DNA of 64,000 nt from contig JBILMD010000002.1 of NCBI GenBank assembly GCA_044375675.1, positions 41,104 through 105,103 on the forward strand. The letters run 5' to 3'. Numbering within the stretch: position 1 is the stretch's first letter; each line of letters starts with the position of its first letter. Below the pieces are notes generated by a model that saw only the letters and a program-made list of their open reading frames with translations, did no database searches and was not told the DNA's origin. Positions 6,601 to 45,370 of this stretch are shown here, piece after piece. The translations under genes and the position numbers were made by a program. This DNA comes from Alphaproteobacteria bacterium. GTDB taxonomy: Bacteria > Pseudomonadota > Alphaproteobacteria > JAJTHO01 > CANGYM01.

Positions 6601-6685
<85 letters not shown>

Positions 6686-17385: not shown

Positions 17386-18315
17386 ATGAGTACCGCGCAA
17401 AAACAGGTTCAGGATGAAGAATCCATAGAAGGCATTTTGCTTTCCATACGGGAAATCATGATGAACGACGGAGCCGAGGAAGCGGGCGCCACCCGCACCA
17501 TGGATGATGCCCCTGTTTTGGATTTGACCCAACTGATTCGTGACAATGGTCAAATTCAGGAAATTCCCAAACCCAAAGCCCCTATCCCCGAAGATATCCT
17601 GAAAGAAATTGACAAAAATAATTTTAAAAACAAACAACTGGCCGAGTCAATCCTTCAGCAGCAAGCTGAGGCAAAAAACATGGTTTTTGAGGATCAGCAA
17701 CCCGATGCTGTCCATCAAGACTTTGTAAGTCAGGATGTTTTTGACGATCAAACTGCCCTGAATGAAATCGCGGATATGCTGGAAGAGGACTTGCCAGACG
17801 TGCAAAGCCTTTCCGAATCCCCCCAAAACGAAGAGTCTTTTTTGGAAGATGAGGACATTTTAGATATTGAAAGCAACGAAGCGCTTGAGCCCCTAAAAAC
17901 AGAAGATGATGGCGATCTTTTTTCGCTGGACATCTCAGAAGATGACGAAGCGTTAAGTTTGGATCATGAGGGTGAGGATGTGACGGAATCCCTGTTGTTA
18001 GAGTCGATGGATCAAGAGGATCTCCAGAGCGATGAAGAGGCTTTGCTGGGTCAGGATGCTTTGGCGTCATCCCTGCGGGCCTTGGATCGGTTGGATGTGG
18101 CTGTGGCCCAAACACGCTTGAAGCCCGATCCCTTGTTTGATCAGGACGATGCCATCGGGACCAGCATCCCCAGCAAATCCTTGGAAGATGTGATTGTCCA
18201 AGCCGTGCAGCCCTATCTCAAAGCTTGGTTAAACACGCATTTGCCCACCATTGTGGAACAAAAAGTTCAAGAAGAAATCCGTCGTTTGGTCAACAAAAAA
18301 TTGGGATCTTCGTGA
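17386..18315 (+). CDS. PopZ-like pole-organising protein (acidic, C-terminal DUF2497)
   Basis: ATG at 17386 within ORF 16966..18315. N-terminal SIEGILLSIREIMMND motif, long Asp/Glu/Gln-rich middle, and C-terminal LEDVIVQAVQPYLKAWLNTHLPTIVEQKVQEEIRRL DUF2497-like helix. Confidence 0.65.
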   Translation: MSTAQKQVQDEESIEGILLSIREIMMNDGAEEAGATRTMDDAPVLDLTQLIRDNGQIQEIPKPKAPIPEDILKEIDKNNFKNKQLAESILQQQAEAKNMVFEDQQPDAVHQDFVSQDVFDDQTALNEIADMLEEDLPDVQSLSESPQNEESFLEDEDILDIESNEALEPLKTEDDGDLFSLDISEDDEALSLDHEGEDVTESLLLESMDQEDLQSDEEALLGQDALASSLRALDRLDVAVAQTRLKPDPLFDQDDAIGTSIPSKSLEDVIVQAVQPYLKAWLNTHLPTIVEQKVQEEIRRLVNKKLGSS

Positions 18316-20186
18316 CGCCAACAGGCGGCCTGTGGGTCCGTGGATGCGTTTTCTTTTTTTTGATTATCTTTTGTGCCCGCGCCTACGGCGATGATCTGGT
18401 GGGCCGCATTGACAGCCTAGAGCCGCAGGGAAAGCGTCTTCGGGCCATCATCACCCCCCTGATGCTAGATCCCCCCCAGAAAACGCAGCGATTGCGTCTC
18501 AGCTTGCCCAGCAAAAACAATACCCATTTGCGCCCTGGGGATACGGTTGGGATGATTGCGAAAATTTATCCCCCTTACCCGCCCCTTGTCCCCGGGGGGT
18601 TTGATTGGCAGCGCTGGTTATATGAAAAAAATATCAGCCACATTGGCTACAGCATGGGCAGGGTGCAGCGATTGAGCGGGGACATATCCCAGCTTTCCCG
18701 CTGGCAACGGTTGCGTATTGAAATCGAGCGTGCCCGTTACGACGTGACCCAGCGCTGGATCCAAGCGGCTCCTGACCCAGAAACAGGGGCCTTTGCTGCC
18801 GCCTTGTTTACCGGTATGCGCGGGGCCATCAGTGCATCCTTGGTGGAATCGATGCGGGTTGCGGGATTGACGCACCTGTTATCCATTTCAGGTTTGCATA
18901 TGTCCCTGGTGGCGGGATTGGTTTATTTGACATTCAGGTATGCTTTGGCGCTATTTGTTTTTCGTTTTCCCGTGAAAGCTGTGGCGGCGGCCTTGGCGTG
19001 GGTGTTTTCTTTGATTTATTTGGCGTTTAGCGGGGCCGATATACCCACGCAGCGGTCTTTTATTATGATCAGTCTTGTGCTGCTGGCTGTGATAACGCAT
19101 CGACAGCCATTTTCGTTATGGACGGTTTTTGTGGCGGCCTGTGTTGTGTTGATGATGGATCATCAGGCGCTTAGCAATCCTGGTTTTCAGATGTCTTTTA
19201 TGGCGGTGATCAGTTTGATTGTTTATTATCAACGTCATCGCCCGATGTTCGAGGCGGAATCCACCCGCCTGCGCACCATGGGATTGTATTTTTATGGTCT
19301 GTTCATTTCGACGTTTTGGGTGAACATCACCACCGCGCCCATTGTGGCGTGGCATTTTTATCGGTTTAATCTTTATGGGCCGCTGGCCAACATGGTGGCC
19401 ATTCCGCTGAGTTCCTTTTTTCTGATGCCACTCATTATTCTGGCGGCTCTGGCAACGCCCTTTGGGTTAGAGGGGCCTTTTTTATGGGTGTTTTCCCTAG
19501 GGTCCCAGCCCCTGTTTGATCTGACGTATGCCATTGAATCGTGGCCTGCGGCCAACATTTTGCTGGGGGCCTATGATCAGCGGGCCTTTTTTTGTTTTGT
19601 TCTGGCCGGGTTTTTGTTTCTGTTTTTGCGGGGATGGCGGCAATGTCTGAGCCTGCTGCCCGTGGGTTTGGGGCTGTTTTTTATGTCCCTGACGGTGCGT
19701 GCGGACATGCTGATCAGTCATGATGGGCGTCATTTGGTCACCATAGGTCCTCAGGCCCTGACCATCTACACACGCCGCCCCAGTGATTTTATTTTTGAAA
19801 AATGGGCCGATTATTGGGGCGTTCCCATGGATCGGGTGACGGTGGTGAAGCTTTTGGAAAAGGATCCGCCGGCGGATCTTTGTGCAAACAATCTTTGTTT
19901 GATTCCCTACAAACCTGGGCATGTGGCCGCTATGCCGCTGAGTGCGTCTGCTTTGGCCGCCGGTTGTGCCCGCTCGGATATTGATTTTCTTGTGACGCCC
20001 TATACGGCGCCTGCGGCGTGTCGCGCAAAAACCGTTGTGGATCGGGCTTCCTTGGCCAAAACGGGGGCGCAGCTCATATGGTTTGCGCCGTATCGGGTTT
20101 TAACGGATTACGATGTGCGGGGGGCGCAGCCGTGGAATGCCTTTGAAAATCAGCCTGAAAATCAGCCTAGGGCCTCATCGCCATAG
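18312..20186 (+). CDS. comEC: ComEC/Rec2 family DNA internalisation protein (no C-terminal beta-lactamase domain); start uncertain
   Basis: GTG at 18312 overlaps the popZ-like stop as GTGA. DUF4131-like OB region, then the competence core (GLTHLLSISGLHMSLVAGLVYL…) and multiple TM helices. In-frame ATG alternatives lie at ~18460 and ~18552. Confidence 0.75.
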   Translation: MTPTGGLWVRGCVFFFLIIFCARAYGDDLVGRIDSLEPQGKRLRAIITPLMLDPPQKTQRLRLSLPSKNNTHLRPGDTVGMIAKIYPPYPPLVPGGFDWQRWLYEKNISHIGYSMGRVQRLSGDISQLSRWQRLRIEIERARYDVTQRWIQAAPDPETGAFAAALFTGMRGAISASLVESMRVAGLTHLLSISGLHMSLVAGLVYLTFRYALALFVFRFPVKAVAAALAWVFSLIYLAFSGADIPTQRSFIMISLVLLAVITHRQPFSLWTVFVAACVVLMMDHQALSNPGFQMSFMAVISLIVYYQRHRPMFEAESTRLRTMGLYFYGLFISTFWVNITTAPIVAWHFYRFNLYGPLANMVAIPLSSFFLMPLIILAALATPFGLEGPFLWVFSLGSQPLFDLTYAIESWPAANILLGAYDQRAFFCFVLAGFLFLFLRGWRQCLSLLPVGLGLFFMSLTVRADMLISHDGRHLVTIGPQALTIYTRRPSDFIFEKWADYWGVPMDRVTVVKLLEKDPPADLCANNLCLIPYKPGHVAAMPLSASALAAGCARSDIDFLVTPYTAPAACRAKTVVDRASLAKTGAQLIWFAPYRVLTDYDVRGAQPWNAFENQPENQPRASSP

Positions 20187-21165
20187 CCACATCCAGCATG
20201 CGATGGGAAAAACCCCATTCGTTATCATACCACGAAAGGACCTTGATCATCTCCCCAACCTGACGGGTTTGGGTGGCATCGAAAATCGAGCTTTCTGATG
20301 TGTGGTTAAAATCGGTGGACACCAGCGGCAGGGTGTTGATGGACAAAACGCCTTTCATCGGGCCGTCGGCGGCGTTTTGCATGGCGTTATGAATCTCAGG
20401 GATTGTGGTGGGGCGTTCGGGCAAAAAGGTCAGATCCACAACAGACACATTGGGCACGGGCACACGCATGGCAAAGCCATCCAGTTTTCCCTTCAGCTGG
20501 GGTAAAACCAAAGCAACCGCTTTGGCGGCGCCGGTGCTGGTGGGGATCATGGATGTTCCCGCCGTGCGGGCCCGCCGCAGATCACGGTGATTGCCATCCA
20601 GAATCCTTTGATCATTGGTGTACGCATGAATGGTGGTCATGATGCCGGATCGAATGCCGCAGCATGCATCCAAAACCGCCGCAACAGGGGCCAAGCAATT
20701 TGTGGTGCAAGAGGCATTGGACACAATACGGTGCTCGGCCGTTAAATGGCCATGATTCACCCCATAAACCACGGTAATATCGGCATCATCCGCGGGGGCG
20801 GAAATCAGAACGCGCCCAGCCCCCGCCGCCAGATGCATCATGGCCCCTACGCGGTTGGCAAATTTTCCCGTACATTCCATAACAACATCCACGCCCAAAT
20901 CCCCCCAGGGCAAGGTTTCCGGTGAATGTTCCGCAAACATGGCGATGCTGTGTTTGCCCACGCTTAGGGTTGTGTCCCCTTTGACAACAGGGGTGTTCAA
21001 ACGGCCATGGACAGAATCAAACTGTAACAAATGGGCGTTGCTGTCGATGCCACCGCGATCATTGATGGCGACAATCTGAATGTCATCCTGCGGACGATCC
21101 AAAAGACCGCGTACAACCAAACGCCCAATGCGTCCAAAACCGTTGATGGCAATGCGTAGGGTCAT
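20167..21165 (-). CDS. gap: glyceraldehyde-3-phosphate dehydrogenase
   Basis: INGFGRIGR Rossmann motif, SNASCTTNCLAP active site, WYDNEWG. Confidence 0.95.
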   Translation of the reverse strand: MTLRIAINGFGRIGRLVVRGLLDRPQDDIQIVAINDRGGIDSNAHLLQFDSVHGRLNTPVVKGDTTLSVGKHSIAMFAEHSPETLPWGDLGVDVVMECTGKFANRVGAMMHLAAGAGRVLISAPADDADITVVYGVNHGHLTAEHRIVSNASCTTNCLAPVAAVLDACCGIRSGIMTTIHAYTNDQRILDGNHRDLRRARTAGTSMIPTSTGAAKAVALVLPQLKGKLDGFAMRVPVPNVSVVDLTFLPERPTTIPEIHNAMQNAADGPMKGVLSINTLPLVSTDFNHTSESSIFDATQTRQVGEMIKVLSWYDNEWGFSHRMLDVAMAMRP

Positions 21166-21444
21166 AAGGATCCGCCCTTTTGTAAAAATTCCCGATTCAG
21201 AAGGTTGGATATACTGACTTTGGGATAGAAAATCCAGTGTTTGTTGGGGAACAGGGCGACTTTCTGAGAGTTTTATTAACTCATTTCAAGGGAAGCCCTT
21301 GGTAGGTATCTTGCTGGATTTAGCTGTGAGGACGGTCTAATATCAGGTTCATTCTCAAGGCGGTTAATTTCTTGTTGTAGTGCGTCTCTATCAAGTAAAC
21401 ATAAATATATTGTGATGAGTGATAAACTGTAATAACATGCAGCT

Positions 21445-23031
21445 ATGATGTTTAATAACTTTATGCGCTATGCACTGCTTCCCTTATGGGTAGTTTCATT
21501 TCTGAGCAGCACAGCAAATGCTAGTGGTTACTGTATATACGATATTGCGGCACCGCAGCCTTATCTATCAGACGATATCAAAAACAATCCATTATTGGAG
21601 AGCGGTAGAGATGGAAAGGCCATACTGCCAAGTTACTGGAAAAAACTTGATGGAAGCAATCGGGTCATCGCGCATAATGACATATCTGTTTCTACAGACG
21701 AGAGCGAAAAATATGCCCGTCGCATTGCGTCCGTATTTTGGCAGTTTTCTCCTGATGATAAAATCTTCAAACAGCCGCAGTTAATTGAACCGTATGTTAA
21801 TGAACGGCATTACTCTCCATTAGAAGATAGAATATTATTTGTTGATGGAAGATGGATCGAGAAAGACGGCTCAAAAACATATCAACCGGAATTATATGAA
21901 TATGATTTTAAGTCTTCAGCTCGATTAGTTAATTCCAGCTTAGCAAACTTCCCAAGCGACGTTAGTGATATATTATGGAGCGAAGGTTTAAATGGTTGGC
22001 TGCTAACGTATACGCACCACCAACAAGATCAAGTGGCTTTATGGACAAAATCTGCTCTAAAACCACTTGATATTGATGGTGGTGTGGACATGTTAAAGTA
22101 CCTACCCAAGATTGAAAAAGTCGCAGTACTTAATCGAAGAGGATTTTATTTACTAAACCTTGATGGGTCTACGGCACTTTTTCAGGAGATCAATCCTGGG
22201 GATGATGCTGCTAATGGTTGGGATGGCCTCTACCCATTACCAAACAACTGGTTTTATGTTGGTGCAGTGGAGTATGACCACCTGTTTCAAATAATACAAG
22301 AAGGTAATGAGTGGCGAACTGGAGAATTAATCCGCTTGCGCCCGAAAGAAGGATTTTTCTTGAGCCTACTGACCAAGCTCACAGGCTTTGATAAACGAGA
22401 TAATTTAAGTTCAATCAAGAATCTTGGAGGATGGTCGTATAGCCCCCTTTTAGACACGATGATTTTTGGAGAAGCCGGCAAAATATTTAAAAACGGGAAG
22501 CTGGAAAAAATCTATTCGCCGGTCAAATTAGATTGGCCACTGGGAGATATTGAATTTGCAGGCGTCACAGCCTATTACGGAAAAGATAAAAAGGTTCACC
22601 TATACGATGGAAAAAAATGGATGGTTGCGTCTGGCCCAAAGGTTCTGCGTGGTCGTTTTTCTATCGTATCTAGTCAGAAGCGTATTTTTTACTCTACTTA
22701 TAATGATAGATATTCAACAACGCCACTTTATGAGTTGCTACAAAAAGACGGTAGCTGGGTGATTGAGTTGGTAAACATACCAGAAGAAAGCCCCGACTCG
22801 TTCACCAGATTCTATGAGCCTTTACACGGTAATGATATATTAGTGTTTACCCGTCGTTCTATTTACGCCCTGAATGGCAATAGTTGGCAGGCTATATGGG
22901 AGCCAGAAAATGGTGGTTTTGTGGATCTCACAAGCCATTTGGCACCATTAAGATTAGGCTCTGAAGCAGAGAAACAAGGGATTCTCTTTACAGCTGGTGA
23001 TACTTTCCATTGGCTTGAGCGATGTGAATAA
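21445..23031 (+). CDS. hypothetical secreted protein encoded in an AT-rich (foreign-looking) segment
   Basis: 528 aa. Signal peptide MRYALLPLWVVSFLSSTANA followed by SGYC. Lys/Asn/Tyr-rich composition. The gene and its flanks are about 38% GC in a counted sample, against high-50s % around them. No recognisable family. Confidence 0.7.
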   Translation: MMFNNFMRYALLPLWVVSFLSSTANASGYCIYDIAAPQPYLSDDIKNNPLLESGRDGKAILPSYWKKLDGSNRVIAHNDISVSTDESEKYARRIASVFWQFSPDDKIFKQPQLIEPYVNERHYSPLEDRILFVDGRWIEKDGSKTYQPELYEYDFKSSARLVNSSLANFPSDVSDILWSEGLNGWLLTYTHHQQDQVALWTKSALKPLDIDGGVDMLKYLPKIEKVAVLNRRGFYLLNLDGSTALFQEINPGDDAANGWDGLYPLPNNWFYVGAVEYDHLFQIIQEGNEWRTGELIRLRPKEGFFLSLLTKLTGFDKRDNLSSIKNLGGWSYSPLLDTMIFGEAGKIFKNGKLEKIYSPVKLDWPLGDIEFAGVTAYYGKDKKVHLYDGKKWMVASGPKVLRGRFSIVSSQKRIFYSTYNDRYSTTPLYELLQKDGSWVIELVNIPEESPDSFTRFYEPLHGNDILVFTRRSIYALNGNSWQAIWEPENGGFVDLTSHLAPLRLGSEAEKQGILFTAGDTFHWLERCE

Positions 23032-23154
23032 AGTTCGATATTTCTCATTCATAACAATTTTTTATTGCCCTTATTGAAACCCACGTAAAACCCTTTCCCC
23101 CGCCCCTGTCGGTGTGGTAAAAGGGGGACTCTTTGAATTTGTGTGGATTTGCTC

Positions 23155-26100
23155 ATGTTAAACCTTCCTAATGGCGTAACGTTTGCTGATTTTTATACGG
23201 CGGAGGGACTGTCGCGGCTGGATAGCCTTTTCCTTGAAACATTGAACCAAAAGGCCCCCGCGCTGGCAGAATCCCTTTTGGCCGCCCGTGCCCATCCAGA
23301 AACGGTGGGCAAGTTGGAAGAGTCCACCCTGATTCTGGCCGTTGCCCCTGTTTTAGAGGATTTTTTGACAACGCTTTTTGGCATTGAAAAACAGGCTGCT
23401 GCCCTCAGCCAAAATCATCACGACCTGATGCCGTTGTTTGAGGTCCGCCGCCTGTTCGTGCAGCGTCAGGCCATGAAAACTTACGGCAAAGAGGCCGCCA
23501 CCTTTGATGGTGCCGCATTGTGGCGGGATTTGGCCCCTCATTTCCCCCGCAAGACCGAGGATGCGGAACTGGATTTCGCCCACGCTGTTTTGATCTGGCA
23601 AGAGGAAGAGGGCAGGGGGGATCTTCTGGACCTGGCGCTGCGTTACGCCGCATGGGCAACGGTGCAGGAAAAATCATCCTCTGTGTTGTTTAAAGAGCCC
23701 AAGAAACTGGATTTTGCCCATTTGGTGCATACCCAAAAAATTCACCGTGACGGCGTGGATATGTTCGTGGCGCCAGAGGGCCATTTGCGCCCTCGCCATG
23801 GCTTTGCCCTGACGGATGCGGGGGGAACCCTGCGTGATGCCCTCAGCGAGGCCACCTATTGCATTCATTGTCATAACCAAGGGCGGGATTCCTGCAGCCA
23901 AGGTCTGAAAGACAAAAAAACCGGCGCATTCCAAAAAAGCGCCTTTGGCGTCACCCTGACGGGCTGCCCGCTAGAGGAAAAAATCTCCGAAATGCACACC
24001 CTGAAAATACAGGGGCATGCCTTGGGCGCTTTGGCGGTGATTACCATTGATAACCCTATGGCCGCCGCCACGGGCCACCGCATTTGCAATGACTGTATGA
24101 AGGCCTGCATTTACCAGAAACAGGAACCCGTCAACATCCCCCAAGCCGAAACACGCATTTTGCGGGATATTTTGGAACTGCCCTATGGGTTTGAGATCTA
24201 CAGCTTGCTGACCCGCTGGAACCCCCTGAACATCCATCGTCCCTATCCCAAGGCCGCCACGGGCAAAAAGGTCTTGGTGGTGGGCATGGGGCCCGCGGGC
24301 TTTACGCTGGCGCATCATTTGATGAATGACGGGCACACGGTGGTGGGGATTGATGGGGCGAAGATCGAGCCCCTGCCGGATGTCTTAACCGATACCACCA
24401 AACCCATTGAGGATATAAAAGCCCTTTGGGAAAATCTGGACGAACGGATTTTGGCCGGCTTTGGGGGCGTTGCGGAATATGGGATCACGGTTCGGTGGGA
24501 TAAAAACTTTTTAAAGGTCGTGCGTCTTTTGCTGCAACGGCGGGCGCAGTTTTCCCTGTTTGGCGGGGTGCGTTTTGGGGGAACCTTGAGTGTGGCTCAG
24601 GCCTTTGATGATTTTGGGTTTGATCATATTGCCCTGTGTGCAGGGGCAGGGGCCCCCACAATTGTGGATATGAAAAACGGTCTGGCAAAGGGGGTGCGGC
24701 AGGCCTCGGACTTCCTGATGGCCCTGCAACTCACGGGGGCGGCCAAGGCCGATGCCTTGGCCAACCTGCAAATCCGCTTGCCGGTGGTGGTGATTGGCGG
24801 CGGCCTCACAGGGGTAGATACCACGACAGAGGCCTTGGCCTATTATCCCGTGATGGTGGAAAAAACCCTGAAACGCTATGATAGTTTATCCGAAAAAAAC
24901 GGTGAAGCCGCCGTTCGCGACGCCTATCGGCCCGAAGATCTGGCCATTTTGGATGAATACCTGATGCATGCCAGGGCCCTGCGGGCAGAAAAGGCCAAAC
25001 CCAACCCCGATGTGATCGGTCTTTTGCAATCTTGGGGGGGATCGACGTTGGCGTATCGAAAGGATTTAACCGATGCCCCGTCCTATACCCTGAATCACGA
25101 AGAGGTGGAAAAGGCCCTGGAAGAGGGGATTGCCATTGCCCCCAACTGCACCCCTGTGGCGGTGGAGGTGGATGAATCGGGATGGGCCAAGGGTCTGACG
25201 GTGAAACACACAAACGGCGGCACCCACACCCTGCCGGCCCGCACCATTCTGGTGGCGGCGGGCACCAAGCCCAACGTGGTGCTGCATGATGAAGACCCCA
25301 CGCACATCACGCTGGATGGACGTTATTTTCAGGCCATTGATGAAACGGGAAGCCCTGTGAAGCCCGAAGCTCTGGCCAAACCCACAACGCCCCATATTTT
25401 GGCCAGCCGGTATGACCATCATCGCTTTATCAGCTTTTTTGGGGATATGCATCCCTCCTTTGCGGGGAATGTGGTGAAGGCCATGGGCAGTGCGAAGCAG
25501 GGCTATCCCATCGTATCCCGCGTTTTGGAAACCGAGGGCCAAAGACAGCAGGTGGACAATGCCGCATTTTTTGCCCATCTGCATGATCAGTTGTTTGCCA
25601 CGGTCCACGCCGTCAATCGTTTAACCCCCAACATTGTGGAGGTTGTGGTGCGTGCCCCCCAGGCCGCGCGGCAGTTTCAGCCTGGGCAGTTTTACCGTTT
25701 GCAAAATTTTGAAACCTACGCCCCCATCATCAACGACACGCGCTTGGCCATGGAGGGCATCGCCGCCACAGGGGCTTGGGTGGATAAAGAACAGGGATTG
25801 CTGGCCACCATCATTTTGGAAATGGGCGGATCATCCAGTTTGTGTCAATATCTGAAGATTGGTGAGCCCATAATCCTGATGGGCCCAACGGGGGAGCCCA
25901 CCCATATTCCCCACAACACAACCGTCATTCTGGTGGGCGGGGGCTTGGGCAATGCCGTTTTGTTTTCCATCGGGGCCGCGCTAAAGGCAGCGGGCAGCCG
26001 CGTTTTGTATTTTGCGGGCTATAAAAAATCCGGTGACCGCTATCACGTGGATAAAATCGAATCCGCCAGTGATGTGGTGGTGTGGTGCTGTGACGAGCCT

Positions 26101-26544
26101 TCAGACTTTACCCCAAACCGCCCCCAAGATCGGGCCTATACGGGGAACATTGTGCAGGCCATCGCCGCCTATGCGCGGGGGGATTTGGGGACGCCGTCGA
26201 TTCCCACGGAAACCGTGGATCATCTGGTTGTCATTGGATCCGACCGCATGATGGATGCCGTTCGCATCGCCCGCCACGGTGTTTTGGCCCCCTATCTGCC
26301 CAACGTGACGCAGGCCATTGGCAGCATCAACAGCCCCATGCAATGTATGATGAAAAAAATCTGCGCCCAGTGTCTGCAAATCCACCGCGACCCTGTAACA
26401 GGGCAGGAAACGGTGGTGTATTCCTGTCACAATCAGGATCAGCCGCTGGATCAGGTGGATTTCAAATGCCTGAATGATCGTTTGGGGCAAAACAGAGCGC
26501 TGGAGATTCTCACAGCGGGGTGGATCAAGGCGTTGCCCGTCTAG
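23155..26544 (+). CDS. large FAD/NAD(P)H iron-sulfur oxidoreductase: N-terminal unknown domain + GltD/NfnB-like + PyrK/NfnA-like fusion
   Basis: ORF from GTG 23143; I prefer ATG 23155. N-terminal Cys clusters (CIHCHNQGRDSC…GCP and CNDCMKAC). Rossmann motifs (VLVVGMGPAGF, VVVIGGGLTG). FNR-like motifs in the C-terminal third (GQFYRLQN, VGGGLGNAV). C-terminal Cys4 (CMMKKICAQC…CHN…C). Confidence 0.75.
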   Translation: MLNLPNGVTFADFYTAEGLSRLDSLFLETLNQKAPALAESLLAARAHPETVGKLEESTLILAVAPVLEDFLTTLFGIEKQAAALSQNHHDLMPLFEVRRLFVQRQAMKTYGKEAATFDGAALWRDLAPHFPRKTEDAELDFAHAVLIWQEEEGRGDLLDLALRYAAWATVQEKSSSVLFKEPKKLDFAHLVHTQKIHRDGVDMFVAPEGHLRPRHGFALTDAGGTLRDALSEATYCIHCHNQGRDSCSQGLKDKKTGAFQKSAFGVTLTGCPLEEKISEMHTLKIQGHALGALAVITIDNPMAAATGHRICNDCMKACIYQKQEPVNIPQAETRILRDILELPYGFEIYSLLTRWNPLNIHRPYPKAATGKKVLVVGMGPAGFTLAHHLMNDGHTVVGIDGAKIEPLPDVLTDTTKPIEDIKALWENLDERILAGFGGVAEYGITVRWDKNFLKVVRLLLQRRAQFSLFGGVRFGGTLSVAQAFDDFGFDHIALCAGAGAPTIVDMKNGLAKGVRQASDFLMALQLTGAAKADALANLQIRLPVVVIGGGLTGVDTTTEALAYYPVMVEKTLKRYDSLSEKNGEAAVRDAYRPEDLAILDEYLMHARALRAEKAKPNPDVIGLLQSWGGSTLAYRKDLTDAPSYTLNHEEVEKALEEGIAIAPNCTPVAVEVDESGWAKGLTVKHTNGGTHTLPARTILVAAGTKPNVVLHDEDPTHITLDGRYFQAIDETGSPVKPEALAKPTTPHILASRYDHHRFISFFGDMHPSFAGNVVKAMGSAKQGYPIVSRVLETEGQRQQVDNAAFFAHLHDQLFATVHAVNRLTPNIVEVVVRAPQAARQFQPGQFYRLQNFETYAPIINDTRLAMEGIAATGAWVDKEQGLLATIILEMGGSSSLCQYLKIGEPIILMGPTGEPTHIPHNTTVILVGGGLGNAVLFSIGAALKAAGSRVLYFAGYKKSGDRYHVDKIESASDVVVWCCDEPSDFTPNRPQDRAYTGNIVQAIAAYARGDLGTPSIPTETVDHLVVIGSDRMMDAVRIARHGVLAPYLPNVTQAIGSINSPMQCMMKKICAQCLQIHRDPVTGQETVVYSCHNQDQPLDQVDFKCLNDRLGQNRALEILTAGWIKALPV

Positions 26545-34351: not shown

Positions 34352-35206
34352 ATGCAATTCATTTGTCCTATTAAGATCAATTTAAATCTTCATGTTATTT
34401 CAAAGAGAAAAGACAATTATCATAACCTACAAAGCTTGGTTGTTTTTGTGGAGGGAGGAGACGGTTTATCGTTTCACCCAGAGGGCGAAATGTCTTTAAG
34501 GGGGGGGGCGCCCCAGTCAAAAGAAACCCAGCGCCTGCAGGTTACGGGACCTTTTGCGGGGGCTGTGCCCACCGATAACACCAACAGCATCCTGCGGGCC
34601 CACACAGCGTTTGAAGAGGCCCTAGGTCACCCTGTGGCTGGCCGGTGGCAGCTGAATAAAACGGTTCCTGTGGGGGCGGGACTGGGCAGTGCCTCTGCCA
34701 ATGCGGCAGCGGCCCTGAGGTTACTTCAAAACATTCATCCACTACATGAAGAAAAGATTTTATCCATCGGAAAATCCATAGGATCAGACGTTCCCGTTTG
34801 TCTTTTGTCCCAAAACGCGATTATGGAGGGAACGGGGGATCGCCTGACCGTAACCCCCGATGTTATCACGCCCCCTCTGGTGATTGTTTTTCCTGGTGTT
34901 GTGCTGTCAACAAAAATGATGTTTGAAAAGTTTTCTTTTGAAAAATCAAAATATTGTGACGAACAATCAATCAAAAACATGAAAGATATTTGGGCCACCC
35001 ACAATGCTTTTGAATCTCTGGCCTGTCAACAGGCCCCTGTGATTGCCGATGTTCTGGAGTCTCTGCGGAAAACAACAGGATGTCGCTTGGCCCGCTTATC
35101 GGGCAGTGGCAGCGCGTGTTTTGGTGTTTATGAAACCCAATATCAGGCGGTTGCTGCATCTCAGGCTTTGAAAATAAAATACCCCTCTATGTGGGTCTGG
35201 CTTTAA
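34352..35206 (+). CDS. ispE: 4-diphosphocytidyl-2-C-methyl-D-erythritol kinase
   Basis: PVGAGLGSASANAAAALRLL GHMP-kinase motif. KINLNLHV N-terminus. Confidence 0.85.
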   Translation: MQFICPIKINLNLHVISKRKDNYHNLQSLVVFVEGGDGLSFHPEGEMSLRGGAPQSKETQRLQVTGPFAGAVPTDNTNSILRAHTAFEEALGHPVAGRWQLNKTVPVGAGLGSASANAAAALRLLQNIHPLHEEKILSIGKSIGSDVPVCLLSQNAIMEGTGDRLTVTPDVITPPLVIVFPGVVLSTKMMFEKFSFEKSKYCDEQSIKNMKDIWATHNAFESLACQQAPVIADVLESLRKTTGCRLARLSGSGSACFGVYETQYQAVAASQALKIKYPSMWVWL

Positions 35207-35277
35207 ATGCGATGGTGGTATAAAATGATTAAAGCAATAGCAATGTTCCCTTGGTATGATCATAGTCTTGTATTGTG

Positions 35278-36969
35278 ATGGATGTTTTTTTATCTGAAAC
35301 CCCTATGTCCTTGATTGATAAAATTTTGATGGTTTTTGGTGTGCGTCGTGAATCTGCTCGGGATGTTCAGCGGCAGAGAAAAATTCGTTTTTTGTTGGAC
35401 AAATCTCCCTTACCGTCTTGGATTCGGGATAAGGGCATGGTGCTCCAGTATTGCAATTTTGCGTATGCGGATATTTTTGAAACCACGCCAGAACGTGTTC
35501 TTCAAAAACAAACTCCTTTTTATGGCGATGGGGACGCCTGTGCTTTGGCGAGAGTGGCTTTGGAGCGGGATACCCCACAATCCACCACGGCAACGGTGAT
35601 TGTGGGGGGAAAACGTCGGTTGTATGAAATCACCGAAATTCCCACATTGGACGGTGAAGCCGTAGTTGGCTATGCCAGCGATTACAGCGCCGTTGAGGAT
35701 TTACAAAGCGCCCTAGAGCGGCACATTCAGTCATCACAAGATATTTACGAGTTTCTGGGATCTGCGGTGGCCATTTTTGGGGCCGGACGCACCCTGCAGT
35801 TTTATAACCATGCTTTTGTGCAAATGTGGAAGCTTGAGGAGGAGTGGTTATCCCAAGGCCCCACAGTGGGGGAATTTTTGGATCATCTGCGCAGGCGTCG
35901 CATGATGCCAGAATCGCTGGATTTTCAAAACATGCGAAAAGAATACATGGGGATGTTCACATCCTTGCTGGAGCCCAAGCAAGCGTTTTGGCACTTACCA
36001 GATGAGCGCACCATCAAAATTACCATTATCCCCCATCCTTTGGGGGGCATTTTCTTTTCTTATGAAAATGTAACCGACCGCTTGGCTTTGGAACGCAATT
36101 ATAAAACCCTGCTGTCTGTTCATGAATCTGTGATCCAGGATTTAGAAGAGGGTCTGCTAATTTGGGGATCCGATGGGCGTATTCAAAGGATGAACACGTC
36201 TTGTTATGAACTTTTGTGTTTGGATCAGCCCAAGGATTCTTATGAGGGGATGCGCCTGCATGATCTTCTGGACTCTCTCAGGCCTCTGCTGCTAAGACAC
36301 CTTTCTGGATACCGTTGGTCTGCCTTTCAAAAACGGTTACTCGGCCGGTTTATGGGGCAAAAACCACGTCATGGAATGTTTCGTCTTAATAATGGCGTCA
36401 GATTGCGTTATGCTCTGCGCTCTTTGCCCGATGGGGCTTTTGTTTTGTCTCTTTTGCCCATGATACCGTCCTCTATCGGTACAGGGACCCACTTTGCGGA
36501 AGGTGCCATAAAAAATAACGGTGCTGCAGAAAGTCAAATCCATGATTCCATGGTTATGGCGCCTGTTTTGACGATGATGGATGCCGTTATTCCGGCTTTT
36601 CAAAATCAGTTTCAGCACAAGGGGGTCTCAATTTCCCTAAACCACAGCGGTGGATCTGATGTGACGTTGCCTCAAAAGTTGTTTGAGGATGCTATCAAAA
36701 TGCTTTTATCGCTGATTGTGCTGTGTGTTAAGCCGAAAAGTGAAGTTGTTATGACCCTTAAATTTTTGAGGGGGTATGTTATTTTGGATGTGGTTTTTGT
36801 TTTAAGCAAAGACGCGTTTCACGTGTTGCCGCGGGATCTGAAAGACTTGCCTGGGATCACCAGTCTGGCACGACAGTATAGCCAATATCTAAAACTTGAT
36901 GTAGAGTTGGGGCAGGGGGATGCTATAGAGCTATCGCTGGCTTTTTTCCCGCATCACTCTGCCTCTTAA
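35278..36969 (+). CDS. PAS-domain sensor protein with degenerate histidine-kinase-like C-terminus (no H-box recognisable)
   Basis: 563 aa. The GC is visibly lower than in neighbouring genes (sampled ~45%). Three PAS-like segments, then a C-terminal region with alternating hydrophobic segments (…VVMTLKFLRGYVILDVVFVLSKD…) that loosely resembles a histidine-kinase ATPase fold but lacks the H-box, N, G1 and G2 motifs. Confidence 0.55.
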   Translation: MDVFLSETPMSLIDKILMVFGVRRESARDVQRQRKIRFLLDKSPLPSWIRDKGMVLQYCNFAYADIFETTPERVLQKQTPFYGDGDACALARVALERDTPQSTTATVIVGGKRRLYEITEIPTLDGEAVVGYASDYSAVEDLQSALERHIQSSQDIYEFLGSAVAIFGAGRTLQFYNHAFVQMWKLEEEWLSQGPTVGEFLDHLRRRRMMPESLDFQNMRKEYMGMFTSLLEPKQAFWHLPDERTIKITIIPHPLGGIFFSYENVTDRLALERNYKTLLSVHESVIQDLEEGLLIWGSDGRIQRMNTSCYELLCLDQPKDSYEGMRLHDLLDSLRPLLLRHLSGYRWSAFQKRLLGRFMGQKPRHGMFRLNNGVRLRYALRSLPDGAFVLSLLPMIPSSIGTGTHFAEGAIKNNGAAESQIHDSMVMAPVLTMMDAVIPAFQNQFQHKGVSISLNHSGGSDVTLPQKLFEDAIKMLLSLIVLCVKPKSEVVMTLKFLRGYVILDVVFVLSKDAFHVLPRDLKDLPGITSLARQYSQYLKLDVELGQGDAIELSLAFFPHHSAS

Positions 36970-43790: not shown

Positions 43791-44999
43791 ATGAGCACCA
43801 CGACAACTGCTACAGCCCTGTCCTTGCGACAGCTTTGTGATCCTGCGGTTTTGTATCGCCCCCATGCTTTGGCGGCAGCGACCCAGTATTTTCACGACAA
43901 TTTTCAGGCTCGGTTGCTTTACGCCGTAAAGACCAACCCTGATCCTGTCATCTTGACCGATTTGTATCGGGCAGGGGTGCGCTCTTTTGATGTGGCATCC
44001 TTGACAGAGGCTGAGGATCTCTCTGGCCGATTCCCCGATGCCACATTGTTTTACATGCATCCGGTCAAGCCCCGTCATGCCATTGCCAAGGCCTACCACG
44101 ACTTTGGTGTGCGGCATTTTTCGCTGGATTCCGAGGCGGAGCTGAGAAAAATCCTAGAAGAAACAGGGCACGCCAAGGACCTGTCGCTGCATGTTCGCTT
44201 GGCCATGCCCAACAGCTATTCGGAAATTACGCTGGCCAACAAATTTGGTGTGGCCCTGCATGATGCGCCGGCGTTGATTGGTTTGGTGTCCCAGCATGCC
44301 GCCGAAGTGGGCATTTCTTTTCATGTGGGATCCCAGTGCATGAATCCCGATGCCTACCGCATTGCCATTCGCATGTGCCGCACGGTGTTGGATGATTTGC
44401 CCACCCCCCCGCAGTATTTCAATGTCGGGGGTGGGTTTCCGTCCATTTATCCCGGGTTAACGCCGCCGGATTTGCATTTGTATTTTGATGCCATCCACGA
44501 AGCCTTTTCCCACCTGCCAAACCACGAAAACATGACCCTGCTGGCTGAGCCAGGGCGGGCTCTGGTGGCCGAAAGCGGATCGGTTTTGGTGCGTGTGGAT
44601 ATGCGGCGGGGGGATACCCTGTATATCAACGATGGCACCTACGGCAGTTTGTTTGATGCGGGGCAGCTTGGGTTTGTGTTTCCCACGCGCCTGCATCGCG
44701 CGTCCTTGCGGGTGCCCAAGGCGGAACATGCGTTCCGGTTTTACGGCCCAACGTGTGATTCCATGGATGTTATGCAGGGCCCCTTCATGGTGCCCGATGA
44801 TGTGCAAGAGGGGGATTACATCGAAATTGGTCAACTGGGGGCCTACGGCTGCACCATGGCCACAAAGTTCAATGGTTTCACGCAGGACTCTGTTTTGTAT
44901 ACGGTTTCGGATGATCCGTTGCTCAGTTTATATCCCGCTTTCACCAAACCGCAGGAACAATTGCGCAAACCCCTTGCGTTTACAGGAAAAAAGTGGTAG
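43791..44999 (+). CDS. ornithine/lysine decarboxylase (fold-III PLP-dependent, eukaryotic-ODC-like)
   Basis: ATG at 43791 within ORF 43695..44999. YAVKTN PLP-Lys motif. GGGF and EPGR motifs. C-terminal beta-barrel domain. Confidence 0.8.
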   Translation: MSTTTTATALSLRQLCDPAVLYRPHALAAATQYFHDNFQARLLYAVKTNPDPVILTDLYRAGVRSFDVASLTEAEDLSGRFPDATLFYMHPVKPRHAIAKAYHDFGVRHFSLDSEAELRKILEETGHAKDLSLHVRLAMPNSYSEITLANKFGVALHDAPALIGLVSQHAAEVGISFHVGSQCMNPDAYRIAIRMCRTVLDDLPTPPQYFNVGGGFPSIYPGLTPPDLHLYFDAIHEAFSHLPNHENMTLLAEPGRALVAESGSVLVRVDMRRGDTLYINDGTYGSLFDAGQLGFVFPTRLHRASLRVPKAEHAFRFYGPTCDSMDVMQGPFMVPDDVQEGDYIEIGQLGAYGCTMATKFNGFTQDSVLYTVSDDPLLSLYPAFTKPQEQLRKPLAFTGKKW

Positions 45000-45039
45000 A
45001 TAATGGGGGTTATGGCAACATAACTATGACGATAAATGG

Positions 45040-45370
45040 TGTATGGAATAGGCGTTTCGGACCCGGGGGCGGAACCCGGCACCTCCACCCCAGAGCCCTT
45101 AAAAAAAAACTTTGGGGACTTTGCGGCGGGGGTGAATCAGGATCGACGGGCGTAATAAAGATATGACTTTCGTTCGGTATGGTACCGCTGTTATCGGGCC
45201 AAAACTCTAAGTGCTAACGATAACGTTACACCTCAGGCGAACCTGAAACTGGCTGCCTAACCGCGGCTTGTTTTGGATTTTCCTAGCGGTCGGGGGGCAC
45301 CGGGCAACAGAACGCCCCCACAGCTGGTTTTGATCCACAGTGGTTTCAGGACTGTTGCTTTCTTTTTGTT
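45040..45370 (+). ncRNA. ssrA: tmRNA (ssrA), two-piece circularly permuted form: acceptor piece ending ~45087, coding piece beginning 45128; outer boundaries approximate
   Basis: The 5' strand GGGGGUG (45128-45134) pairs with CACCUCC (45080-45086), including the G3.U70 wobble, followed by discriminator A. The T-arm CCGGG-GGCGGAA-CCCGG lies upstream of that. The segment GGGGGUGAAUCAGGAUCGACGGG closely resembles the E. coli tmRNA 5' end, and UUUCGGACCCGGG…CACCUCCA resembles its 3' end. Confidence 0.65.
45213..45260 (+). other. tmRNA tag-peptide reading frame: ANDNVTPQANLKLAA*
   Basis: gct aac gat aac gtt aca cct cag gcg aac ctg aaa ctg gct gcc taa, read directly from the sequence. An ANDN… start and …LAA end are the alphaproteobacterial proteolysis-tag pattern. 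Confidence 0.65.

Follow-up and report, generated by a model that had tools for sequence, protein, structure and literature searches.

A single AT-rich gene between gap and an oxidoreductase gene of an alphaproteobacterium: probable recent lateral acquisition of a predicted exported beta-propeller

The genome of an Alphaproteobacteria bacterium (GenBank assembly GCA_044375675.1) contains, between two core genes, an AT-rich gene that encodes a protein of no named family. The stretch analysed, hereafter the window, comprises 64,000 nucleotides (nt) of contig JBILMD010000002.1 (positions 41,104 to 105,103). According to the listing of open reading frames (ORFs), the gene occupies 21445–23031 on the plus strand, stop codon included, and encodes 528 amino acids (aa). 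It is referred to here as the propeller gene, after the fold modelled for its product. On its left lies gap, encoding glyceraldehyde-3-phosphate dehydrogenase (20167–21165, minus strand; Pfam Gp_dh_N and Gp_dh_C), which is transcribed away from the island. On its right lies the gene for a GltD-like/FNR-like flavin adenine dinucleotide (FAD) oxidoreductase of the RP005_N family (23143–26544, plus strand; Pfam and NCBIfam). Lateral acquisition of the propeller gene is well supported. The results presented here make it likely that a recent insertion of one gene, spanning ~21399–23065, placed an exported, approximately ten-bladed propeller protein between gap and the oxidoreductase gene.

The base composition and codon use of the propeller gene are foreign to the host genome. 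G+C content (GC), measured in sliding windows of 300 nt, falls from 0.52–0.58 to 0.37–0.43 across ~21150–23100 and then returns to 0.51–0.57. Of the 64 bins of 1 kb that make up the window, the two over the ORF have the lowest GC (0.416 and 0.418), and the ORF itself has a GC of 0.410, compared to 0.525 in the remaining DNA of the window. GC at third codon positions (GC3) is 0.365 in the ORF, compared to 0.57 in the window and 0.58–0.65 in the gap, ComEC, oxidoreductase and CysS genes. Relative to the 50 other ORFs of the window, the propeller gene deviates by z = -4.0 for GC and z = -3.2 for GC3. Its codon adaptation, with the other window genes as reference, is the lowest of 51 genes (0.534 versus 0.704 +/- 0.030; z = -5.6). 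An earlier reading of this DNA, made from the letters and translations (the sequence-only reading), had described an abrupt drop in GC and a shift in codon use at the ORF, and the profiles bear this out. Several of its details require correction. The drop was placed after the gap stop codon; since gap lies on the minus strand, composition instead falls after its start codon (CAT, 21163–21165), and 21166–21444 is a divergent intergenic region. A recount of the first 103 nt of the ORF gives 39 G+C rather than 38, and the flanking genes, put at high-50s percent GC by eye, measure 52–56%. The protein had been called rich in Lys, Asn, Tyr and Ile. Compared to neighbouring proteins, Lys, Asn and Tyr are indeed enriched, as is Trp, and Ala is halved, whereas Ile is unchanged (5.9% versus 5.7%). 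Similarly, the 279 nt upstream of the ORF (21166–21444), described as an AT-rich leader, are AT-rich (GC 0.394) but fall inside the range of intergenic DNA across the window (0.36–0.54). Because the GC of this region is ordinary for the window's intergenic DNA, the demonstrably foreign unit is limited to ~21399–23065. The remainder of the divergent intergenic region (21166–21398) is not shared with the copies of the gene on contigs L084 and L001, described below, and has no Rfam match.

Copies of the propeller gene in other genomes define the unit that moved. A word-indexed search of 5.8 billion proteins returned four close homologues with 77–92% aa identity, and a profile query added none. 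Homologues 83–92% identical to the window gene in DNA occupy three unrelated genomic contexts, one of them the site in the window. The copy on L084/L085 (85% protein identity, 91.5% DNA identity) has a small hydrophobic ORF on one side and a CNNM/CorC gene on the other. The copy on L001 (77% protein identity, 83% DNA identity) lies on a 21-kb contig that also holds genes for a MobA/VirD2 relaxase with a fused RepB-primase domain, for NikA, a PIN toxin and RES-Xre, and for the reverse transcriptase of a group II intron, and that carries remnants of insertion sequences (IS). This contig is a mobilizable element. DNA homology to the window detected by blastn is limited to 21399–23065 for L084/L085 and to 21424–23034 for L001, stopping ~45 nt 5' and ~35 nt 3' of the ORF. 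An upstream segment of 46 nt (21399–21444, plus strand) travels with the gene, in full in L084/L085 and from 21424 in L001. The 34 nt downstream (23032–23065, plus strand) are common to the sister-lineage copy (L084) in the blastn and alignment results and form the 3' edge of the transferred unit, which measures ~1.67 kb. The boundary with L084 at 23065, together with homology to the sister-species contig L093 that starts at 23080 (L093 9926), pins the right junction within 14 nt (23066–23079). No matches to the propeller protein or gene were found among viral contigs, phage genomes and plasmid records, and neither the family alignment nor a DNA pattern retrieved any metagenome contig.

The time of the transfer can be judged relative to the split of the two lineages. 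Contig L093 comes from the sister species and carries the oxidoreductase that is 88% identical to that of the window. The DNA on the left side of L084 matches L093 at 94% identity, which assigns L084 to the sister lineage. Synonymous divergence (dS) between the window and this lineage is 0.067 for the propeller gene and 0.96 for the oxidoreductase gene, a 14-fold difference. It is reasonable to conclude that the propeller gene was exchanged long after the lineages split. The sequence-only reading had proposed an "old or minimal" insertion; the insertion is minimal, consisting of a single gene, but the dS values contradict an old one. The 10 kb upstream of the L093 oxidoreductase gene contain an IS630-type helix-turn-helix (HTH) fragment, a small ORF, and genes for an amidohydrolase, PNPase and S15, with no trace of the propeller gene or gap. 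In the synteny comparison suggested earlier, asking whether gap directly adjoins the oxidoreductase gene elsewhere, the sister species thus lacks both the propeller gene and gap within this distance. Within the species, the propeller gene is found at the same site between gap and the oxidoreductase gene in all five assemblies seen besides the window (L082, L083, L086 and L095–L097, with L095 and L096 being near-duplicates). The junctions are identical in independent Logan, JGI and ENA assemblies, and an assembly chimera was rejected on this basis. The two outcomes that had been named as speaking against an insertion, an ordinary profile of GC and codon adaptation and orthologues at the same site in all relatives, were not found.

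The DNA next to the insertion has features of its own. An IS630-family HTH fragment (L093 9552–9764) lies directly upstream of the oxidoreductase gene in the sister species, and synteny between the window and L093 begins just 63 nt 5' of the oxidoreductase GTG (window 23080). Together, these indicate that the region upstream of the oxidoreductase gene is a rearrangement hot spot in both lineages. On the other side, gap has the highest dS among flanking genes of same-species strains (0.13 versus 0.035–0.09) and a nucleotide identity of 96.2%, compared to 97.7–99.7%. This suggests a recombination tract or divergence hot spot reaching from the island into gap. The start of the oxidoreductase gene is called in two ways, as GTG at 23143 (1133 aa) in the ORF listing and as ATG at 23155 (1129 aa) in most public calls; JGI P0166 also has 1133 aa. 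Choosing the ATG over the GTG lengthens the spacer 3' of the island from 111 to 123 nt.

The product of the propeller gene is predicted to leave the cytoplasm. Its N-terminus reads MMFNNFMR-YALLPLWVVSFL-SSTANA, and by inspection residues 1–26 (21445–21522, plus strand) form a signal peptide with an n-region containing R8, the hydrophobic core YALLPLWVVSFL, a c-region ending in TANA, and a predicted cut between ANA and SG. Alanine at positions -3 and -1 is kept in 83% and 79% of family members, respectively. The n- and h-regions and the AxA motif seen in the translation, along with this conservation, agree with the Sec signal peptide recognised earlier, and the protein is probably exported by Sec and cleaved after Ala26. 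No other sorting signal was seen in the sequence, including features of type I, III, IV, V and IX secretion systems (T1SS, T3SS, T4SS, T5SS and T9SS). A lipoprotein processed by signal peptidase II (SPase II) was considered and rejected; there is no lipobox, the residues S-G-Y precede Cys30, and Tyr occupies the -1 position in 83% of the family. Cys30 (codon 21532–21534, plus strand), the fourth residue of the predicted mature protein, and Cys527 (codon 23023–23025, plus strand), the penultimate residue, are the sole cysteines. The former is conserved in 29/29 members covering the column and the latter in 36/36, and the two are putative disulfide partners. Per-column conservation in the alignments is highest within residues 249–280 (22189–22284, plus strand), a candidate functional site. 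The two motifs in this segment, INPGDDAANGW (family consensus LNSGDDYxGW) and GAVEYDH (consensus GAQYDHA), map to loops between modelled strands 243–248/259–265 and 269–274/278–286, respectively. The family shares the AxA signal peptide, a Y-C pair 3–4 residues past the predicted cleavage site and a C-terminal LLxxC, with RDxL, GD, YDG and FTRF as further motifs.

The protein founds an unnamed, very rare family. Searches of the window protein against Pfam, NCBIfam, PHROG, PADLOC and PDB sequences gave no match (Pfam at E <= 1); the sequence-only reading, which recognised no family, was correct in this respect. An exhaustive HMMER profile scan of 1.84 billion cluster representatives returned 42 proteins at E <= 1e-3. 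Approximately 20 of them are full-length relatives (500–555 aa) with 20–29% identity, and those bearing a name are called "hypothetical protein". Pfam searches with 19 family members gave only two stray matches, US22 and HHH_6, and the family profile matched no PDB sequence at E <= 10. No Pfam or NCBIfam hidden Markov model (HMM) of the named propeller repeats (WD40, Kelch, PQQ, FG-GAP, NHL, YVTN, PD40 and Reg_prop) matched. Two giant proteins, P0043 and P0044, weakly match single blades, and no informative repeat family emerged from them. In all nine family contexts the gene stands alone with no conserved neighbours, and its GC is always below that of its flanks, by 1–17 points. The simplest reading of this family-wide AT-richness is repeated lateral spread from AT-richer donors. 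One relative with 29% identity (L087 4773–6344, L088 and L089) has a GC of 0.433 against 0.60 in its flanks, a one-gene island still sharper than that of the window, and lies between hisD and a DUF2541 gene of an unrelated genome. Most of the distant members contain a second cysteine pair (CRxFS ... IFC) near a helical insert (alignment columns ~445–465). The window subfamily has lost this pair, with Trp330 in place of one cysteine and IFGEA instead of IFC.

Structure prediction suggests an unusually large propeller. An AlphaFold run with 5 close sequences (predicted local distance difference test, pLDDT, 39.6) was discarded in favour of a run with 44 family sequences, which reached a pLDDT of 88.5 and a predicted template modelling score (pTM) of 0.85. 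The resulting model is all-beta, with 42 strands and a helical insert at 304–320, and the strands are consistent with one large beta-propeller of about ten four-stranded blades. Foldseek comparison to the PDB returned propellers generally, with sortilin as best match at a template modelling (TM) score of 0.51, and seven-bladed PDB propellers align over only ~200–250 residues of the model. The best match to sortilin and the short alignments to seven-bladed propellers point to a single ring of very large size, closest in architecture to the Vps10p propeller with its 10 blades. A search of viral folds in BFVD gave generic propeller matches only. In the model, the closing blade is probably built from the N-terminal strand (29–34), which contains Cys30, and the last strands (512–526), with Cys527 in the final one (520–526/7); a disulfide between the two cysteines probably clasps the ring. 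Such a clasp would fit an oxidising compartment, either the periplasm or the outside of the cell.

The features above suggest a route from gene to function. After export by Sec, the protein would be a soluble propeller in the periplasm or outside the cell, its ring locked by Cys30-Cys527. Through the conserved acidic and aromatic loops (SGDD..GW, QYDH and RD) near the middle of the ring it would act as a soluble binding module; an enzymatic role is less likely and forms the main alternative. Enzymes are numerous among secreted bacterial propellers. A glycoside- or ester-cleaving metal-dependent hydrolase or lyase, for example, could use the conserved Asp, His, Tyr, Arg and Glu residues as an active site, and N250, D253, D254, Y271, Y277, D278, R297, R318, S333, D368, D388, R413 and E430 are all conserved. 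However, the protein has no sequence similarity to any enzyme family, and its best structural matches are receptor propellers. The window allele departs from both of the most conserved motifs, SGDD (S replaced by P, plus an additional Ala) and QYDH (Q replaced by E); an active site would probably tolerate such changes poorly. D388-G389 and similar residues lie in repeated blade turns and are probably structural. An enzymatic role is thus unlikely, although it retains some probability.

The propeller protein is evolving rapidly. Comparison of the window allele to that of L095, of the same species, counts 47.5 non-synonymous differences and 9.5 synonymous ones, and the ratio of non-synonymous to synonymous divergence (dN/dS) is 1.39. 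The ratio is 0.03–0.11 in six of seven neighbouring genes measured and 0.31 in the seventh, Elm1; the contrast with the neighbours is significant (Fisher p = 1.5e-16). Recent alleles give dN/dS values of 1.0–1.5, and comparison to L084 gives 1.1. All copies seen in full have an uninterrupted ORF, where random substitution would on average have introduced 3, 7 and 12 stop codons at the three levels of divergence. An ORF free of stop codons has a probability of 0.05 at the lowest of these levels and of <1/2000 at each of the other two, indicating the gene is functional yet fast-evolving at the protein level. A decaying pseudogene was considered and rejected. Differences within the species concentrate in the N-terminal half (27/234 versus 13/268 positions, p = 0.008) and also reach the two motifs with the highest conservation. 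The rapid replacement of amino acids and the repeated transfers could reflect a partner outside the cell that keeps changing, for example a phage, grazer, competitor or variable substrate. In a broader and rather improbable scenario, an undescribed family of disulfide-clasped, approximately ten-bladed propellers of the periplasm or the cell exterior would circulate among environmental Proteobacteria as a minimal unit of promoter and ORF. It would be under diversifying selection as a contact point with phages, predators or competitors, acting for example as a receptor decoy or as a sensor of variable ligands, and its AT-richness would invite AT-directed, MucR-type silencing in alphaproteobacteria.

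The same observations bear on the possibility that the gene is native and vertically inherited, having become AT-rich through weak constraint and GC-to-AT mutation bias. A dN/dS of ~1–1.5 among recent alleles fits relaxed constraint, and the family is AT-richer than its flanks everywhere, perhaps in part due to a composition rich in Lys, Asn and Tyr. However, the GC of the gene stays at 0.41 whether its flanks in the host are at 0.45, 0.48 or 0.525, and its homology ends sharply in each of three unrelated contexts. A native gene should also not have a dS to the sister-lineage copy 14-fold below that of the adjacent core gene, be absent beside the oxidoreductase gene of the sister species, or remain intact where 3–12 stop codons are expected. 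Vertical inheritance is therefore very unlikely.

The sequence-only reading had favoured an acquired effector or toxin of a host-associated alphaproteobacterium, and the gene does have the profile common to many effectors, being laterally acquired, exported, fast-evolving and of no known family. The window encodes an alpha-type, two-piece permuted transfer-messenger RNA (tmRNA; 44970–45322, tag ANDNVTPQANLKLAA), which places the organism in the Alphaproteobacteria. No RNA genes other than this tmRNA and a tRNA-Leu (6601–6685) were detected in the window. The lineage appears isolated, since oxidoreductase homologues drop from 99% identity (same species) to a single one at 88% (sister species) and then to 63%. 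Genes of the neighbourhood include those for ChpT, CheA, CheW, FliP, FabH, PlsX and CysS, and the DNA of the window recurs in independent metagenome assemblies from Logan, JGI and ENA, on contigs up to 492 kb. Nothing pointing to host association was seen in the surrounding genes or assemblies. The chemotaxis and flagellar genes and the apparently environmental origin of the assemblies argue against a host-targeting effector, and no toxin, effector, defence (PADLOC) or phage (PHROG, phage genomes) match was found. Moreover, the model is a plain propeller that appears to carry no attached catalytic or translocation domain, no features of the T1SS, T3SS, T4SS, T5SS or T9SS were recognised in the sequence beside the Sec signal peptide, and none of the nine family contexts contains an adjoining secretion-system or immunity gene. 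The proposal of an effector or toxin is thus unsupported, and its probability is very low.

A recent lateral insertion of one gene raises the question of how the gene moved. The most economical reading is that a mobilizable plasmid or integrative element would have delivered the gene, followed by illegitimate or short-homology recombination. The hallmarks of dedicated machinery are missing from the locus. No tRNA gene lies near the propeller gene within the window, the nearest being at 6601 and 44998, and the tRNA and tmRNA genes are 15–22 kb off. The neighbouring genes include no integrase, and no direct or inverted repeats of note flank the ORF in the window, confirming the absence of tRNA, integrase and obvious direct repeats reported earlier. 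A classical genomic island was rejected accordingly; the composition is atypical, but the integrase, the adjacent tRNA or tmRNA gene and the flanking repeats are lacking. An integron cassette was also rejected, given that only 34 nt are shared downstream, no attC-like fold is present and no integrase is found in any context. Neither an attC-like palindrome nor a terminator was found 3' of the ORF, where the predicted downstream fold is no better than that of shuffled sequence (z = -0.27). It is extremely unlikely that the gene moved, rather than by illegitimate recombination, as a mobile cassette of a defined kind, whether of an integron or bounded by IS or miniature inverted-repeat transposable elements (MITEs): what moved is little more than an ORF with short flanks, IS remnants lie near other copies and an 83-nt direct repeat in L084 brackets the gene and a small ORF, but integrase and attC-like palindrome are both wanting, terminal inverted repeats and target duplications are absent from the window, and the L084 repeat is host sequence.

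The L084 repeat (73–155 and 2002–2084; 90% identical) brackets a 51-aa hydrophobic ORF together with the propeller homologue. It occurs as a single copy in L093 (9338–9389, at the junction of the amidohydrolase gene and the small ORF) and is absent from the window. This points to recombination or a duplication at the L084 locus and not to a defined element. A Campbell-type single crossover or a local duplication may account for it.

Several points weigh against a recent one-gene insertion of an exported propeller as formulated here, or against parts of it. No genome that has gap but lacks the propeller gene was found, so that of the two edges of the insertion only the right one is defined. When species-representative genomes were searched with the oxidoreductase, the best identity among the matches listed was 61% and none of these matches was linked to gap; closer relatives may exist beyond them. 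The blade count and the proximity of Cys30 to Cys527 are predictions that depend on the strand listing of the model. The choice between binding and catalysis is a guess, because no homology carries information on function. With regard to evolutionary rate, dN/dS falls to 0.3 against the more distant L001 copy. A dN/dS near 1 fits relaxed constraint equally well, and five or six alleles do not separate this from diversifying selection.

The transferred unit may carry its own expression signals. Within the 46-nt upstream segment, TAATAA is found at 21430–21435, 9 nt 5' of the ATG, and there is no Shine-Dalgarno sequence. The segment is a possible self-contained promoter with a near-leaderless start, although a promoter consensus scan found no plus-strand site in 21399–21444. 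Inside the ORF, a quasi-palindromic hairpin spans 21998–22100 (plus strand; residues ~185–219), with arms at 22004–22041 and 22058–22095 and a predicted RNA minimum free energy (MFE) of -44 kcal/mol (z = -8.35). Only the window and L095 alleles have the extended 5' arm, which takes the place of a different sequence in L084 and L001; it changes ~8 codons and produces a 6-nt length difference. It looks like a quasi-palindrome template-switch mutation, derived in this species. An Rfam scan of the leader and ORF gave only sub-threshold matches resembling microRNAs (miRNAs), which are spurious and due to this hairpin.

Other compositional features of the window lie outside the island. A second, milder GC dip (0.43–0.45) at 17400–17900 corresponds to the acidic low-complexity middle of a DUF2497 protein gene. 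A 163-aa ORF antisense to this gene (17624–18115, minus strand; GC3 0.256) is spurious. The next-lowest GC in the window is found in two adjacent genes at 34352–36969, encoding a 284-aa protein and a 564-aa PAS-type sensor (GC 0.47–0.48, GC3 0.47–0.48).

The recent insertion of the propeller gene provides a clean and well-delimited case of a single gene for an exported protein spreading between chromosomes and plasmids of uncultured bacteria, with minimal flanks and no dedicated recombination machinery. The family is extremely rare (~40 clusters per 1.84 billion representatives), and its unusually large propeller, modelled with high confidence, is best matched in solved structures only by eukaryotic Vps10p receptors. 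If positive selection drives the rapid turnover, the family points to an extracellular interaction of unknown kind; otherwise, the locus is an ordinary orphan islet. The findings bear on no long-standing open question.

The predicted likeness to the Vps10p receptors (sortilin, SorLA and SorCS2) is one of architecture only, and the window protein is not a member of that group. The blades of Vps10p and other Asp-box propellers contain a repeated Asp-box motif, S-x-D-x-G-x-T-W (Quistgaard and Thirup 2009, PMC2716378). In contrast, the window protein has no Asp-box under strict or relaxed definitions (0–2 in family members) and only [DNE]-G-x-x-W turns, and it lacks a BNR or Sortilin-Vps10 Pfam match at E <= 1. 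Sequence identity to Vps10p proteins is 9–12%. The window protein also lacks the 10CC module and a transmembrane tail, having two cysteines and ending one residue after its last strand. It is bacterial, has ~500 residues and is predicted to be closed by its terminal cysteines. Soluble propellers of the bacterial periplasm such as BamB (YfgL) and YncE have 7–8 blades in ~320–390 residues, BamB being a lipoprotein, and show no sequence similarity to the window protein. They are encoded by core, slowly evolving genes, whereas the propeller gene is mobile and fast-evolving. At the level of the locus, the propeller gene differs from classical islands in lacking the hallmarks of integrase, tRNA and direct repeats. 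Unlike genomic islets and single-gene ORFan insertions, it is not strain-variable, being found in all five same-species assemblies seen. It otherwise resembles such insertions in its atypical GC and codon use, its position between housekeeping genes, its narrow distribution, the predicted export of its product and its elevated dN/dS.

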